Positions 20,413 through 29,750 of a stretch of 64,000 bases of DNA are shown in pieces. This DNA comes from an uncultured Candidatus Saccharibacteria bacterium. GTDB taxonomy: Bacteria > Patescibacteriota > Saccharimonadia > Saccharimonadales > 2-12-FULL-41-12. Location: positions 56,507-120,506 of the forward strand of contig CAZNIK010000001.1 in the NCBI GenBank assembly GCA_964573095.1. Direction: 5' to 3'. The first letter of the stretch is position 1. Every line of letters begins with the position of its first letter. The notes below the pieces were generated by a model. That model was not told the DNA's origin, made no database searches, and saw only the letters and a program-made list of their open reading frames with translations. The translations under genes were made by a program, and so were the position numbers.

Positions 20413-21663
20413 CTACAGTGCTATTTTGCTGTGATCGTCGACTGGAGCCTCCGGTGGCGGGGTGTTGCTTGGTTCGACAACGGTTTGCGTTGCTGGGTCG
20501 ACGACGTTGCCGACTCCCGCTTCTGCCTCTGCCATTGCCTTAAGGTCGGGAGTCTTGGTAAGGTCGTTGATTGGTTCGATGACTTTCTTTTTTGGAGAAT
20601 CGTCGAGGGGGTTTTCTGGTTTGTGGGGTTCGGCTTGGGTAGGTGGTGTGGGGCCCTCCTCTTTTACTGGGGGTGGTGTCTGGGTTGGGCTCACGACACC
20701 AAGACTTTCAGCTCCGTTAATAATGCTTGGGTTTGGGGTTGCTTGCTTTGGTTCTTCCTCTGTGTTTGTGGCTTTGGCTTCTGCAACTTCCTCTTGTTGA
20801 AGTGCCTCGGCGAGACTTGGGCCGACGACACTAACGGGCTTGGGATTTTCTGTTGCTACCGGCGCGGCAGGTGGTGGTGTCGTTTCTTCGCTCGGTGGAG
20901 TTGGTAATTCAACTTTGATTGCCGGTTCGGTTGCTTCAACGGGTGGAGCGGGTGTGGGGGTCGCCGGTGCAGCCGGAGCTGTTGCAGCTACTGACTGAGT
21001 TTCTTCGGCGCTGACGGGTTGTGCGGGCGGAGTCTCAATATTCGGTGCTGTGCCAACTGGTGGGTCAAGCTCAACCGGTGTTGTTGTTGGTTCTGCGCCG
21101 ACAGCTTCTTTGGTTTTTGGCTCGGTCACTGCTTGGGCTTGGTCTTGCTGTGGGGCTGTGTTTTCGGTCGTTGCCACTACGGGATTGGTAGGGTTGACTT
21201 GCTCTGTAGTCGCTGCAGCTTGGGGTGTCGCCGGTTCAGTTGTTGGATCGACGGTGGTAGCTCCATCGACTCCAGTAATTGGGGCGTCACCAGAATTGTC
21301 TTGCAGGACATCTTTTACAGCTTTTGCGACATCTTCGAGTGTAACCTGTGATTTTACAAGGTAACGATCGGCGCCGAGTTTATCAGCCCGTGCTTTATCT
21401 TCTGCCTGGGAAAGAGCCGTCATCATAATTACTTTGGTGTTTTTTGTTTCTGGCGCGTTTCTAAGGATGTCAAGCATATCAAAGCCGCTAATTCTTGGCA
21501 TCATCACGTCAGAAATGATGAGATCTGGCTTTTCTTTTACGGCAAGCGCCAAGGCTTCTTCTCCGTCTTTGGCGGCTACAATAGTGTGCCCTTCAGCAAG
21601 CAAGCGGGCGCCATAAATTTCCCGAAGGTTGTTGTCGTCCTCAACGAGCATTATTTTGGCCAT
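20413..21663 (-). CDS. Response regulator receiver domain protein with ~290-aa Pro/Thr/Ala/Glu-rich disordered C-terminal tail
   Basis: The N-terminal 120 aa is a CheY-like REC domain (MLVEDD...DLIISDVMMP...KVIMMTAL...K). The rest is low-complexity PT/E-rich sequence with no output domain. It lies downstream of the kinase in the same operon. Confidence 0.7.
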   Translation of the reverse strand: MAKIMLVEDDNNLREIYGARLLAEGHTIVAAKDGEEALALAVKEKPDLIISDVMMPRISGFDMLDILRNAPETKNTKVIMMTALSQAEDKARADKLGADRYLVKSQVTLEDVAKAVKDVLQDNSGDAPITGVDGATTVDPTTEPATPQAAATTEQVNPTNPVVATTENTAPQQDQAQAVTEPKTKEAVGAEPTTTPVELDPPVGTAPNIETPPAQPVSAEETQSVAATAPAAPATPTPAPPVEATEPAIKVELPTPPSEETTPPPAAPVATENPKPVSVVGPSLAEALQQEEVAEAKATNTEEEPKQATPNPSIINGAESLGVVSPTQTPPPVKEEGPTPPTQAEPHKPENPLDDSPKKKVIEPINDLTKTPDLKAMAEAEAGVGNVVDPATQTVVEPSNTPPPEAPVDDHSKIAL

Positions 21664-23070: not shown

Positions 23071-23213
23071 GTACTGCTTTGATTGAGCTTATGCATATGC
23101 AGTGGATTATAGGCCATCCAGGGGTCGATCAGCTAGTGCTTTTCGTCCTGCGTGGACATTCTACCTCTGTTATGCTAGACTCTCATATGCATTCCTCGTT
23201 CACGGTCTGCCAA

Positions 23214-23232
23214 ACGGCCTCATCGTCTAACG
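23214..23232 (+). repeat. 19-nt duplicate of the 5' end of tRNA-Glu (acceptor + D-arm: ACGGCCTCATCGTCTAACG)
   Basis: Exact match to 23359-23377, which is the 5' end of the intact tRNA-Glu, but not followed by the rest of a tRNA. Confidence 0.6.
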
Positions 23233-23260
23233 TGAGAACTGCCAGTGGCAGTTTGCAAGG
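23232..23260 (+). repeat. Hairpin element copy 1 (GTGAG-AACTGCC-AGT-GGCAGTT-TGCAAGG)
   Basis: 29 nt, 24/29 identical to 23508-23536. The two stem differences (A:T to C:G and C:G to G:C) are compensatory, so the 7-bp stem is preserved in both copies. Confidence 0.55.
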
Positions 23261-23360
23261 CCGCAGGTGCGGCGGCACCGAGGAGGGCCCGACGGATTTT
23301 TTAGCAAAAAAATACCGGTGAGTCGATTCCAATCGAACCTTAAATAAGCGCAACATTCAC

Positions 23361-23435
23361 GGCCTCATCGTCTAACGGTTAGGACACCAGGTTCTCATCC
23401 TGGCAATCGGGGTTCGATTCCCCGTGAGGTCACCA
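23361..23435 (+). tRNA. tRNA-Glu (anticodon CUC)
   Basis: 75 nt by manual cloverleaf: acceptor GGCCTCA/TGAGGTC, anticodon stem CCAGG/CCTGG with loop TTCTCAT (CTC), T-arm CGGGG-TTCGATT-CCCCG, and an encoded CCA. Confidence 0.85.
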
Positions 23436-23443
23436 CGAAAAAT

Positions 23444-23469
23444 AGCTCAGCAGATGCTGGGCTTTTTTC
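23444..23469 (+). terminator. Hairpin + T6 run immediately after tRNA-Glu (putative intrinsic terminator)
   Basis: AGCTCAGCAGATGCTGGGC forms an imperfect stem and is followed by TTTTTT at 23463-23468. Confidence 0.4.
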
Positions 23470-23507
23470 GTGTTCAACGAGGATTGTGCACCGATTGCGG
23501 CAATCGG

Positions 23508-23536
23508 GTGAGCAGTGCCGGTGGCACTGTGCAAGG
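23508..23536 (+). repeat. Hairpin element copy 2 (GTGAG-CAGTGCC-GGT-GGCACTG-TGCAAGG)
   Basis: Homologue of 23232-23260 with covarying stem positions. It is preceded by a 17-nt palindrome CCGATTGCGGCAATCGG (23491-23507). Confidence 0.55.
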
Positions 23537-23594
23537 GAGTCAACTCTTGTAAACTGGTTTGCAAAGACGTTGCGACGGGCTCGCCGAAGGTGAG

Positions 23595-23616
23595 TCGATT
23601 CCCCGTGAGGTCACCA
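23595..23616 (+). repeat. 22-nt duplicate of the 3' end of tRNA-Glu (T-loop/acceptor/CCA: TCGATTCCCCGTGAGGTCACCA), att-like
   Basis: Exact match to 23414-23435. It is preceded by GGTGAGTCGATTCC, a 14-mer also present at 23317-23330 just upstream of the intact tRNA. Confidence 0.6.
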
Positions 23617-23671
23617 AAGTAGAAATGTTTACTTATACACGTGAAGTTGTTATGAGTTACAATATTAGAAT

Positions 23672-24886
23672 ATGGCAAATAAAAGTCTAGGTGCAGCAAA
23701 GAATGCAAAAAACGATGAGTTTTATACGCAGTTTTCTGATATCCAAAAAGAAATTGAAGCATACCTAGAATTCGATCCAGACACCTTTCGTGGGAAGGTG
23801 GTGTATTCCAATTGCGATGACCCCTTTGAAAGTAATTTCTTTCGTTACTTTGCACTTAATTTTAACCGTTTGGGCTTAAAAAAACTGATTGCCACAAGCT
23901 ATAAACCGTCACCTATTGCAAACACGCAACTTGGATTATTTGGTGACGATATTACAATTCAGTCTGAAAAAGGCAGGCCAAATGTAACAGCAAATAAGTT
24001 CATTATTAATGAAGTGCATGATATGGATGGAGACGGTGCTTTCAACATCTCGGACATTGCTAAACAACTTAAGGCTAATAAAAATAACGAATGGGGGCCG
24101 CTCAAAGGTGATGGTGATTTTCGTAGTGAAGAATGCTTAGAGCTTCTAGAACAGTCTGACATCGTGGTTACGAATCCTCCATTTAGTCTTTTTCGTGAAT
24201 ACGTAGCACAGCTCATGGAGCACAAAAAGAAATTTTTAATTATAGGAAACATGAATGCAGTTACTTATAAGGAAATTTTTCCTTTGATCAAAGCCAATAA
24301 AATATGGTTGGGAGTGACGCGACAAGGCACTGGATCAATGTGGTTTCAGGTAAGCCAAAACATGCCAGAGAAAACAGGTCAAAGAGTGGATCAAAACGGC
24401 ATACGATACCAAACAATCGGCAATTCGGCGTGGTTTACTAACCTTGATCACGGGCGACGTCATGAAAAACTATCTTTAATGACGACTGATGATGTTGTCA
24501 AGTTTGGAACAAAAAAAGACCTCGTTAAATATGACAATTACGACGCAATTGAAATATCCCTTGTAAAGTATATCCCGAAGGATTACAGGGGCGTAATGGG
24601 TGTACCGATTACTTTTCTAGGAAAGTATAATCCCGAACAATTTGAAATTCTCGGTGCTACACAAAGAGGTTGCCATGATGAGGTTCCTGATACCAGAAAA
24701 TATGATGACTATTGGGAAGTAAGACAAGATGGCACGAATACTGGATCATCTGGCGGCAAAACTAACGAAAACGCAAATCTAGTTGGTAATGATGGTAAGA
24801 AAAACTACTTTATTAACAAGGATGGGCGGATTGTACAATCTGCATATCAACGAGTATTTATTAGACACAGGAAGGAAGCGACATGA
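23672..24886 (+). CDS. DNA N6-adenine methyltransferase, EcoRI-methylase-like family (NPPF catalytic motif)
   Basis: 404 aa. Catalytic motif [10 protein letters not shown] is present. The N-terminal block NDEFYTQ...[22 protein letters not shown]...[11 protein letters not shown] matches my memory of the M.EcoRI family; the family assignment is from recall, not a search. Visibly lower GC than flanking genes. Confidence 0.75.
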
Positions 24887-26046
24887 TAACCACACTAAAA
24901 ACAGATATTATAATACGAGAAATCGTTGAAGGATTTGAATACAACGAACTTGAAGGCAAAGGTCTATTTGGTCTTTCAGGTAAGCTAACCATCCAGCCTG
25001 AATATCAAAGAAATTATATTTATGCTGATGGCAAAAAAGACGTTGCAGTAATAGAAAGTATTTTGAAAGGCTATCCTATTGGTGTTCTATACTTCAACAA
25101 GATAGATGATGATAAATACGAAGTACTAGACGGCCAACAGCGAATAACAAGTATCGGGCGTTTTATTAAAGGTAAATTTGCAGTTAAAGACGTAAATGGC
25201 CACGAACAATACTATAGTGGCATGTCAGAAGAACAGCGTAAGTTGATCCTAGATAAAGAACTACTTATATACATTTGCGAAGGTGAAGAACAGGAAATGA
25301 TGAAGTGGTTTGAAACCATTAACATCGCTGGCGTACCTTTGAAATTGCAAGAAATAAGAAATGCCGTTTACCACGGACCTTTCGTTAATAAAGCAAAAGA
25401 GATTTTCAGCAACAGTCAGGATGCCAATGTTCAAAAATGGAGCACCTATATTGCGGGTGAAGTTAAGCGTCAGGACTTTCTCGAAACAGCATTAGATTGG
25501 GTAAGTAACGGCAATATAGAAGCCTACATGAGCAATCACCGCAATGATGACAATATCGATGAACTTAAAACCCACTTCGACAAAGTTATAGATTGGGTCT
25601 CTTATACATTCACGGACGTACATAGTGAAATGCGAGGGCTTGAATGGGATCGTCTCTATAAAGAATATGGCTCTAGTTCATACGATCCTAAAAAAATCGC
25701 AAGCAAAGTTAAAGAACTTTATACAAGCTATGAAGTGCGTAGGAAGAAAGGTATTTTCGAGTACATTCTTAGCGGTATGGATGATCCGTCTTTGCTCGAG
25801 ATACGGATATTTGAACCTTCAACTATCAAGACAGCCTATGCACAACAAACGGCTAAAGCTGAAGAAGAAGGAGTGTCGAACTGTCCTATTTGTGCTTCAG
25901 GAAGCAACAACAATAAAGACCGAATTTATAAATTATCGGAAATGGATGCGGATCATGTAACTGCATGGAGTAATGGCGGTGTGACCGACATAAGTAACTG
26001 CGAGATGCTGTGCAGTACTCATAATCGCGCAAAAGGCAATAGATAG
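24883..26046 (+). CDS. DUF262 (ParB-like nuclease, DGQQR motif) + C-terminal HNH endonuclease; GmrSD/SspE/BrxU-like
   Basis: 387 aa. The N-terminus [11 protein letters not shown]...[14 protein letters not shown] is the DUF262/ParB-N signature. The C-terminus CPIC...[32 protein letters not shown] is an HNH (His-Me finger) motif. The start ATG overlaps the MTase stop (ATGA) and is preceded by a GAAGGAAG Shine-Dalgarno sequence. Confidence 0.75.
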
Positions 26047-26062
26047 AAGATAGCTCTAAATC

Positions 26063-26923
26063 ATGAATTTAAAGAAAATATATAATAGCACCACCACCCT
26101 GGAAGAATGGCTCTCATATAAAGGTTCCACTGAAGATGGCGAGAGTTCTTATTTTGAGAACAAGGAAGTTGGCATTGATTTGAACACGACAACTCCAAGC
26201 ACAGTTGGCGACTTCAAGCTTCGCATCGCAAAAGAAATGTCTGCATTTGCTAATACTGATTCAGGGATTATAGCACTCGGAATTGATAGCAAGCTGCAAG
26301 TTAATAATCTGACTGCTCGTCTAGAGGATTGGCTCGATAAAAATATTCGAGATATGCTGGAGCCGCAACTATCAGGTATCGCTCTTAAAACATGCACAGA
26401 TTCTGCTGGCAACGAGTTTGTCTTGATGTATGTGCCCAAGGGCAATGTTATTCCGTACAGGGCGAGTTCCGTGAAAAGCTGTGAAAAAGAAAAAAAGAAT
26501 TTGCGGGAATATTTCCAGAGAACTGGTACCAATAGCGTACCCATACCTATGCCCATAGTTCGGAGCCTGTATCTATCAAATGAACGCGCAACAGACGTGT
26601 CAGCTCGCGTAAAGCCAGTCGCAGTCCATCTAGGTGATGAGGAGGAGCAGCCATATATCGAGTTGGGTATAGAAATTAAGCCCGACCAGACGCGCCTTAT
26701 TAACGAATACTACCTCAAAGCAAGTGTTCTTCTCCTTGATGTAAACTTGAAGCCTCTGAATAAGGTAGCGATTGACCTCGTACCATTTGGACCAAATAGT
26801 CCACAACGACCTATAATTCCACCCGATAGCATTTATCCTATGAATGAATTCGGTACGGTAAGCGTAACAAGGATGAATATTAACTTTTCGGATAAGTCGA
26901 GTGATTATCACTCGGGGTATTGA
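26063..26923 (+). CDS. AlbA_2 / Schlafen-like (putative DNA-binding 'divergent AAA') domain protein with uncharacterised C-terminal domain
   Basis: The N-terminal 150 aa fits the AlbA_2 pattern (YFENKEV...EMSAFANTDSGIIALGIDSK...NEFVLMYVPKGNVIPYRA...YFQRTG). The C-terminal ~130 aa was not recognised. The gene is AT-rich like the two preceding genes. Confidence 0.5.
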   Translation: MNLKKIYNSTTTLEEWLSYKGSTEDGESSYFENKEVGIDLNTTTPSTVGDFKLRIAKEMSAFANTDSGIIALGIDSKLQVNNLTARLEDWLDKNIRDMLEPQLSGIALKTCTDSAGNEFVLMYVPKGNVIPYRASSVKSCEKEKKNLREYFQRTGTNSVPIPMPIVRSLYLSNERATDVSARVKPVAVHLGDEEEQPYIELGIEIKPDQTRLINEYYLKASVLLLDVNLKPLNKVAIDLVPFGPNSPQRPIIPPDSIYPMNEFGTVSVTRMNINFSDKSSDYHSGY

Positions 26924-29198: not shown

Positions 29199-29750
29199 CT
29201 AGACTTCGAGTTCGCCAATGCCTGGCTCGCCTGGTGCAGATTCGTCACCAGAGCCTGGCATTTGACCTATTCCTGGATCGTCGTAGTCGCCTCCAGCGCC
29301 CGCGCCAGCATAATCGACCCCTCCGGCCGCCGGGGCTTCCCCGACGGGTGCAGGTGGCGCAATTGGATCGATGGTACCCGCAACAGGAGTTGTGGGAGTG
29401 ACCACCGTTTGGCTTTCTGTGCCTACAACTGGGCTTGTTGTGGCAGTGGTTTCTGGAACTGGCAGATTGTTTTGTAGTGGCTGAACAGCCTCCGATGTTT
29501 CTGTGTTGTCGGCCGCGGTTTCAACGCTTTCTGGTGTGCTAACAGTGGGCGTTTCTTCAATGACTGGCAAAGGTTGCTCGGTGTTTACCGTCTCAACTTG
29601 GGCGCCTACTGGCTCCACTACTTGACCTGCTTGTTGGCTGGCGATTGGTACGAGCGTTTCTTCGTAGGCTTGTTGGGCTTGATTATAGTCACTGGTGATC
29701 CCAGTATCTTGTTTTTGTTGCGTACTGTCGTCTTGTGAAGAGTCGTCCAT
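29199..29750 (-). CDS. Acidic Pro/Thr/Glu-rich low-complexity protein
   Basis: 183-aa ORF, compositionally biased (PT-rich, many D/E), with no catalytic motifs. Its coding status is uncertain. Confidence 0.35.
   Translation of the reverse strand: MDDSSQDDSTQQKQDTGITSDYNQAQQAYEETLVPIASQQAGQVVEPVGAQVETVNTEQPLPVIEETPTVSTPESVETAADNTETSEAVQPLQNNLPVPETTATTSPVVGTESQTVVTPTTPVAGTIDPIAPPAPVGEAPAAGGVDYAGAGAGGDYDDPGIGQMPGSGDESAPGEPGIGELEV

Follow-up and report, generated by a model that had tools for sequence, protein, structure and literature searches.

How a nuclease bearing the DUF262 domain of GmrSD comes to start inside the stop codon of an adenine methyltransferase gene is the question raised by a two-gene locus in the window, a stretch of 64,000 nucleotides (nt) from an uncultured Candidatus Saccharibacteria bacterium (contig CAZNIK010000001.1). 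The upstream gene (23672-24886, plus strand, 404 amino acids, TGA at 24884-24886) encodes an EcoRI-family (gamma-class) N6-adenine DNA methyltransferase, referred to here as the methylase, and the downstream gene (24883-26046, plus strand, 387 amino acids, ATG at 24883-24885) encodes a DUF262-HNH restriction nuclease. The initial annotation of this DNA saw an apparent paradox in the pair and proposed three readings, namely that the methylase protects from a nuclease attacking unmethylated DNA, that the two proteins act on different motifs, or that the DUF262 domain is a regulator. The comparative evidence favours the first of them: the cassette is probably a restriction-modification module of Type II gene organisation, in which methylation protects self DNA. 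This reading is preferred because of the near-obligate synteny of the two genes, their tight coupling, their co-evolution, the existence of a natural fusion and the end-to-end match of the nuclease to a Type II restriction enzyme profile, and the nucleoside triphosphatase (NTPase), HNH and zinc motifs of the nuclease, invariant or nearly so, also count for it.

The linkage between methylase and nuclease is near-obligate. In a tblastn search with three proteins of the window, 80 of the 83 loci from genomes and plasmids proved to have an EcoRI-family methylase just 5' of the nuclease and on its strand, the remaining three being those where the nuclease starts at most 202 nt from the contig end. 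Among 53 viral contigs from IMG/VR, 45 had room for a methylase and 44 of these carried it, so that, counting all loci with enough room, same-strand adjacency is seen in about 125 out of about 127, with two exceptions. Full-length relatives of the nuclease at 35-46% identity, from Gordonia, Macrococcoides, Dietzia, Variovorax and Sulfitobacter, also lie behind EcoRI-family methylases, and two distinct metagenomic sequences (P0160 and P0272, on contigs of 18.4 and 11.9 kb) join both activities in a single EcoRI_methylase-DUF262-HNH chain of 688 amino acids. The family in which this linkage is kept is a large one. A protein search with the nuclease returned at least 8000 matches of near full length, the best 120 of which are nearly all 387 amino acids long and 66-100% identical to it; relatives occur in at least 571 species (one genome scanned per species), including Saccharibacteria, other Patescibacteria, Bacteroidota, Clostridia, Chloroflexota, Spirochaetes, Desulfobacterota and one Woesearchaeote, and HMMER, run exhaustively over representatives clustered at 50% identity, found 422 clusters at E <=1e-30.

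The two genes are also tightly packed. As the initial annotation had stated, the nuclease starts within the stop codon of the methylase, the four shared nucleotides reading ATGA (24883-24886, plus strand). At the level of open reading frames (ORFs), the identical 4-nt overlap is found in 29 of 75 complete homologous methylase-nuclease pairs, a 1-nt overlap in 6 and a spacing of 14 nt or less in 64, and the overlapping arrangement is therefore not due to chance. The Shine-Dalgarno sequence that had been assigned to the nuclease itself was likewise recovered, as a purine-rich Shine-Dalgarno-like stretch, GGAAGGAAG, within the 3' end of the methylase gene (24870-24878, plus strand), 4 nt 5' of the nuclease ATG. 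Motifs of this kind precede the nuclease start in 27 of the 64 homologous loci checked, and the starts that lack one seem to include those of Bacteroidota-type hosts. With the methylase first and the nuclease start inside its stop codon, synthesis of the nuclease would be tied to prior translation of the methylase. A promoter-like site (TATACA, an 18-nt spacer and TACAAT; 23634-23663, plus strand) ends 8 nt before the methylase ATG; this site is weak and plausible by position only, without statistical support, as 8 such sites were found against 10.4 expected from shuffling.

The identification of the upstream gene as an adenine methyltransferase stands firm. Its product matches the Pfam family EcoRI_methylase (PF13651) near full length, over residues 6-399 (E 5e-129), and the PADLOC profile MTase_II PDLC03297 (E 5e-111). 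The catalytic NPPF motif (residues 168-171, nt 24173-24184, plus strand) is kept in all 75 nuclease-paired methylases, and no intact nuclease beside a visibly broken methylase was found among these 75 pairs. The window methylase is 47.6% identical over residues 2-327 to M.EcoRI, the enzyme that adjoins R.EcoRI on an Escherichia coli plasmid, and of the 74 columns conserved to 95% or more in the nuclease-linked methylases it shares 65, including many in the C-terminal half. The nuclease-linked methylases form two clades with a mean identity of 48.9% between them, and M.EcoRI shares a mean of 50.5% with the clade of the window methylase, a distance no greater than that between the two clades. 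For these relationships distances were used and topology was not, the neighbour-joining tree being midpoint-rooted without bootstrap and thus effectively unrooted; a placement of M.EcoRI nested within the nuclease-linked methylases was dropped for the same reason. Across the 75 pairs, the pairwise identities of methylases and nucleases correlate (r = 0.50, Mantel p = 0.001).

The downstream protein combines three parts. Its N-terminal region is a GmrSD_N/DUF262 domain, a ParB/Srx-type NTPase domain (PF03235, residues 36-163, nt 24988-25371, plus strand, E 3.5e-21), with motif I at Q42-R43, motif II at D83-G-Q-Q-R87 (nt 25129-25143) and motif III at F143/N147, following the motif definitions of PMC12065111, from which the concept of the ParBDB is also taken. 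Motif II is the predicted nucleotide-binding centre. The middle of the protein is an all-helical domain in the AlphaFold2 model (residues ~166-330, nt 25378-25872, plus strand), a candidate ParBDB that, by homology, probably binds DNA. The C-terminal part is a zinc-stabilised HNH (His-Me finger) domain (residues ~331-387, nt 25873-26043, plus strand; PF01844 over residues 344-387, E 5e-7), whose key residues are the cysteines C334, C337, C373 and C377, the pair D357-H358 (nt 25951-25956), N372 and H380-N381. The initial label of a GmrSD/SspE-like protein was thus right about the N-terminal domain and wrong about the C-terminal one, which is a classical zinc HNH domain of PF01844 and not the DUF1524/GmrSD_C domain; Pfam gave no match to PF07510 (DUF1524/GmrSD_C) in this protein.

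Residue conservation was scored in 41 homologues that are 66-90% identical to the window nuclease. Q42-R43, D83-G-Q-Q-R87 and N147 are invariant in all 41, and F143 is nearly so (at least 90%). The check for missing HNH catalytic residues, which had been set beforehand as refuting, found C334, C337, C373, C377, D357-H358, N372 and H380-N381 present and equally invariant in 41 of 41. In relatives at 35-40% identity the D-H pair, N372 and N381 are kept and H380 is lost, which points to an active site of the DH-N-N type. The AlphaFold2 model has a mean predicted local distance difference test score (pLDDT) of 81.6, mostly 84-94 from residue 200 on, and shows an alpha/beta domain up to about residue 165, the helical domain and a small HNH domain. 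When this model was compared with the Protein Data Bank (PDB) using Foldseek, weak matches were obtained to the CTPase domains of ParB, Noc and KorB (best E 0.017, probability ~0.8, template modelling scores of 0.32-0.36 normalised on the target), as well as to BrxU, SspE, Gme HNH and Cas9 HNH; a PDB search found no close relative with a solved structure.

Much of the apparent paradox is removed by what defence databases already hold. The nuclease matches the PADLOC profile REase_II PDLC03418 from end to end, with residues 8-386 aligned to profile positions 7-371 of 372 (E 1.5e-87), whereas only partial matches, covering the DUF262 domain and the start of the helical region, were obtained to Menshen NsnA (residues 33-237, E 4e-33), PD-T4-2_A and HEC-05/06; no NCBIfam model covers it. 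According to a 2026 paper, REBASE assigns a Type II restriction enzyme with its cognate methylase to a gene whose annotation reads 'DUF262 domain-containing protein' (PMC13091528). Since the DUF262-HNH plus methylase cassette is common and already filed as Type II, the paradox largely dissolves. Its framing had been overstated, as DUF262 is a ParB-like NTPase and DNA-sensing module that is not intrinsically modification-dependent and that the literature describes from more than one setting; SspE, a DUF262 nuclease, itself partners a DNA-modification system (PMC12065111; PMC13251355). So had the expectation that each of the three readings would be mechanistically new: the architecture exists in the PADLOC profile and the REBASE entry gives a precedent, so that even the favoured reading, in which the methylase protects from the nuclease, is of a kind already catalogued. 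Full-text literature searches returned no description of a DUF262-HNH nuclease with an EcoRI-family methylase.

According to the restriction-modification reading, the EcoRI-family methylase would place an N6-methyl group on adenine within a short target site of the host chromosome, and the downstream nuclease would be its cognate restriction enzyme, replacing the EcoRI-type enzyme and cutting DNA that lacks the mark. We infer that methylation blocks cleavage by the nuclease, that the DUF262 domain may bind or hydrolyse nucleoside triphosphates (NTPs) to gate the HNH domain, by analogy with GmrSD, BrxU and SspE, and that the nuclease would act as a dimer. The conservation of the NTPase motifs makes NTP independence of the nuclease doubtful; on the same motifs, we would put the chances of a nucleotide role at about even. 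A more specific version, possible but held with less than even confidence, would make the nuclease a functional analogue of an EcoRI-like enzyme in which a ParB-type NTP switch gates the HNH domain, or clamps and slides it, at an unmethylated AATT-core site. No description of NTP-dependent, methylation-blocked restriction with Type II gene organisation was found in the literature searched, despite the thousands of members that the family has.

As to the target itself, GAATTC or another site with an AATT core is our best guess, made from the relationship between the sequences. Both methylase clades serve the same well-conserved nuclease, so their identity of about 49% is compatible with one specificity, and this makes GAATTC, or at least an AATT core, a reasonable guess. 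Two enzymes with AATT-core targets, Sse9I and MluCI, turned out to be unfit as candidates, the former belonging to the PD-(D/E)XK superfamily and the latter being grouped with EcoRI and MunI.

Several observations weigh against this reading or parts of it. The first one concerns the target. Site avoidance was scored as maximal-order Markov observed/expected (O/E) ratios for all 4-mer and 6-mer palindromes, over the window and 1.1 Mb of carrier loci with the cassettes included, and GAATTC ranked 24th of 64 (O/E 0.78) and AATT 15th of 16 (O/E 0.94), indicating generic palindrome avoidance only; as neither is notably avoided, the guess draws no support from this side. The nuclease is also better conserved than the methylase, with mean identities of 72% and 56%, respectively, over the 75 pairs, the methylase being the faster-diverging partner, which is unusual among Type II pairs. 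The match to PDLC03418, even though it spans the protein, scores 292 bits over 372 positions; at that score, the seed of the profile appears to be a distant relative of the same architecture rather than an orthologue. No published biochemistry for any DUF262-HNH nuclease of this family was found in the literature searched, and the DUF262 modules of characterised systems sense modified DNA.

The remaining objections are the two loci in which the nuclease has no methylase as a neighbour. In the viral contig L114 the nuclease is apparently intact and the methylase is absent within 6 kb. Its sub-lineage (L113-L122), made up of elements bearing integrase and Mob genes, carries a 283-amino-acid Bro-N gene between methylase and nuclease (for instance at 5127-5978 of L113); from a point some 40 nt 5' of the Bro-N gene onwards, L114 matches L113 at 98.7% identity and keeps this gene, the nuclease and the integrase, while a LexA-like repressor replaces the methylase upstream. 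The second locus is an 8.6-kb optrA plasmid of Enterococcus dispar, with an apparently intact nuclease at 35% identity and no methylase in the 6 kb examined. A methylase encoded elsewhere in the cell and acting in trans could explain both cases. The converse situation is represented by a plasmid of Bifidobacterium choerinum, in which the methylase has no annotated nuclease after it, in a stretch ending about 420 bp past the gene and on an incomplete gene table of the plasmid. Methylase-only remnants are what the decay of restriction-modification systems predicts, and nuclease-only loci would need a methylase elsewhere in the cell.

The least improbable of the alternatives is a mechanism resembling that of SspE, which we nevertheless regard as unlikely. 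Here, instead of being blocked in the classical manner from binding or cutting methylated sites, the nuclease would actively read the host N6-methyladenine through its DUF262 and helical domains. This would drive NTP hydrolysis and an allosteric switch, by which the HNH domain would be kept away from self DNA or permitted to act in other places, so that unmarked invading DNA would be nicked or cut with little sequence specificity. DUF262 does act as a modification sensor and NTPase switch in SspE and GmrSD (PMC12065111; PMC13251355), all three NTPase motifs are conserved in the family of the window nuclease, the unusual conservation of the nuclease relative to the methylase would be accommodated, and the lack of site avoidance fits cleavage that is not site-specific. 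However, the nuclease domain is a classical HNH rather than DUF1524, the whole protein matches a Type II restriction enzyme profile, and a single methylase family accompanies nucleases across 35-100% identity, as one would predict for two proteins that recognise a common short sequence.

The mobility of the cassette raises another possibility, that of mainly a selfish addiction module acting by post-segregational killing, or an element-maintenance module, that would not be antiviral and whose ParB-like domain would derive from plasmid or element maintenance. The cassette often resides on small plasmids, on phages and on integrative elements bearing integrase and Mob genes, and horizontal transfer has spread it on a very large scale, which would suit this view. 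Type II systems can behave as addiction modules, so this explanation is compatible with restriction-modification and does not exclude it; as an account in its own right it is quite improbable, given that defence genes recur as neighbours (Thoeris, GmrSD, Shedu, Abi, a CBASS-like pair and a Schlafen-domain gene).

Even less probable is a modification-dependent (Type IV or IIM) nuclease that would merely be co-located, as one defence gene beside another, with a methylase that is unrelated to it or acts on a different motif. The same-strand adjacency, kept in about 125 of the roughly 127 loci that offered room, extends over many phyla and down to 35% identity and, with the overlapping and coupled translation, the correlated divergence and the natural fusion, leaves little room for such a coincidence; the second of the original readings, which had the two proteins on different motifs, fits the linkage poorly as well. 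What can be said for an independent nuclease is that the N-terminal domain belongs to the GmrSD_N family, that the weaker PADLOC matches include HEC-05/06 and PD-T4-2_A, and that two loci have a nuclease without a neighbouring methylase; against it, a true GmrSD with DUF1524 is present as a separate gene directly downstream of the pair in L089. Finally, the third original reading, by which the DUF262 protein would serve as an epigenetic reader or regulator without cutting DNA in vivo, is hardly credible. The HNH residues and all four zinc cysteines are the same in each of the 41 homologues, the D-H, N and N core is kept in distant relatives, and such an invariant nuclease site would be needless for a pure reader. 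The ParB-family DNA-binding regulators KorB and Noc, which are among the weak fold matches, offer nothing specific in favour of this reading.

Several known systems can be compared with the cassette. It resembles the Type II HNH systems (REase_II PDLC03418 plus MTase_II) in its separate, adjacent methylase and restriction genes, its HNH catalysis and its mobility. Contrary to classical Type II enzymes, which are not known to depend on NTPs, the window nuclease has a conserved ParB-like NTPase domain. In comparison with the EcoRI system, the methylase is a clear homologue of M.EcoRI and its target may be the same or a related one, but the gene order is reversed (restriction gene then methylase in EcoRI, methylase then restriction gene in the window) and the nuclease is unrelated to R.EcoRI, which has a PD-(D/E)XK fold. 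True EcoRI-family restriction enzymes adjoin related methylases in three of the loci (L084, L085 and L095).

With GmrSD and BrxU the nuclease shares an N-terminal DUF262 domain with the DGQQR motif and a C-terminal His-Me finger nuclease, and it has weak sequence and fold matches to BrxU (PDB 7p9k). However, those enzymes have a DUF1524 nuclease, a length of about 580-730 amino acids, solitary genes and modified-cytosine targets, whereas the window protein has 387 amino acids, a PF01844 domain and a tie to an adenine methylase, which sets it apart from the solitary GmrSD enzymes. SspABCD-SspE is similar in that a DUF262 nuclease works with a DNA modification by which the host marks itself (PMC12065111; PMC13251355), but the mark is a backbone phosphorothioate placed by four proteins and the nuclease domain of SspE is a DUF1524. 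Among the large ORFs at 20-31 kb, three of which were domain-scanned and the others judged by translation, no gene of the ssp or dnd type was found. Menshen NsnA matches by profile over the DUF262 domain and the start of the helical ParBDB domain, but it is devoid of a nuclease domain and acts together with the ABC ATPase NsnB and with NsnC; neither partner is present at the window locus, where the nuclease has the methylase and a Schlafen/AlbA_2 protein as neighbours. Finally, LlaJI and LlaI-type systems use Type IV-like machinery, a McrBC-like GTPase and a nuclease, as the restriction arm of a methylase-protected system, but with unrelated proteins, several subunits and cytosine methylation.

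The pair forms a cassette complete in itself, which is often met in defence islands and on mobile elements. Among the matches listed, the closest named relative of the nuclease is 90% identical and belongs to a Candidatus Saccharibacteria bacterium; a look-up of the exact sequence of the window nuclease returned no contig record. Two other loci whose nucleases are 90-91% identical to that of the window differ in what follows the pair: in L089 (7172-9355) it is the true GmrSD, with DUF262 and DUF1524 in 727 amino acids, and in L087 (7171-9017) the Thoeris genes ThsB-TIR and ThsA-Macro. As such close relatives sit in different defence islands, the cassette moves as a unit. Other neighbours of the cassette include Shedu and Abi genes. 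Plasmids carrying the cassette come from Enterococcus faecium, Arthrobacter, Moraxella, Rhodococcus, Leuconostoc and others, and in the cultured Flavobacterium phage vB_FspS_laban6-1 the overlapping pair forms an opposite-strand insert beside the tape-measure gene.

On three Gram-positive plasmids (L001, L149 and L150) the cassette or its relatives adjoin antibiotic-resistance genes. These are optrA together with erm(A) on the E. faecium plasmid, mef(F)/msr(G) on that of Macrococcoides canis and, once more, optrA on that of E. dispar; the cassette may help to stabilise these plasmids. A locus from Moraniibacteriota (L015, 5910-8731) has three same-strand genes between methylase and nuclease, encoding a nucleotidyltransferase (NTP_transf_2; its SMODS match is weak and falls short of the Pfam cut-off), a protein with a Cap15 cyclic-dinucleotide-receptor domain and a Fic protein; judging from these domains, the insert would be a CBASS-like module inside a restriction-modification pair.

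For the genome at hand all this carries little weight, as the window locus adds just another restriction-modification cassette of the mobile kind, placed in a small defence island, to what is probably a Saccharibacteria genome. The interest lies in the family, which is very large and strikingly conserved, crosses domains and phyla and reaches resistance plasmids with optrA, erm(A) and mef(F), and in the domain, since DUF262, now mostly presented as sensing modified phage DNA, would also be at work on the other side of the distinction between self and non-self. Provided that its NTPase motifs function, the nuclease would offer a tractable single-chain model for a ParB-like switch controlling a nuclease, and cultured carriers exist in the Flavobacterium phage laban6-1 with its host and in the E. 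faecium plasmids. What remains of value in any case is a very widespread enzyme family for which no mechanism was found in the literature searched.

The surroundings of the cassette in the window are in line with its mobility. The guanine-plus-cytosine (GC) content falls to 36-41% over 23.5-27 kb, a region comprising the methylase, the nuclease and a Schlafen-domain gene, against about 46-49% on either side, which is consistent with recent horizontal acquisition. A tRNA-Glu gene with a terminator-like hairpin lies 5' of the cassette (23361-23435) and is the only tRNA found by Rfam and ARAGORN. Pieces of it are repeated over 23205-23620: a copy of its first 19 nt lies at 23214-23232, a 14-nt piece resembling the T-arm is present at 23317-23330 and 23589-23602, and its last 22 nt recur at 23595-23616, just 5' of the methylase promoter region. 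These fragments look like scars of repeated integration at the tRNA. The 22-nt repeat of the tRNA 3' end was considered as a pair of island borders and rejected, both copies being upstream of the cassette and none downstream.

On the other side, a gene for a Schlafen/AlbA_2 protein (26063-26923, plus strand, 286 amino acids, PF04326 over residues 27-161) starts 16 nt after the nuclease stop codon, with no terminator-like site between them; no domain was assigned to the C-terminal half of its product. It was considered as a third component of the cassette and discarded, being absent from all 83 plus 53 related loci, and no NCBIfam model covers its product. Bacterial Schlafen proteins have recently been shown to be effectors of phage defence (PMC13056530), so this gene may be a separate defence gene of the same small island. 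Further away, two minus-strand ORFs stand out by their GC content of 55-57%. Judging by its translation, the product of the one at 20413-21663 would begin with a response-regulator receiver domain and continue in a low-complexity tail, about 290 residues long and rich in Pro, Thr, Ala and Glu, and the one at 29199-29750 would encode an acidic, Thr/Pro-rich protein of 183 amino acids.

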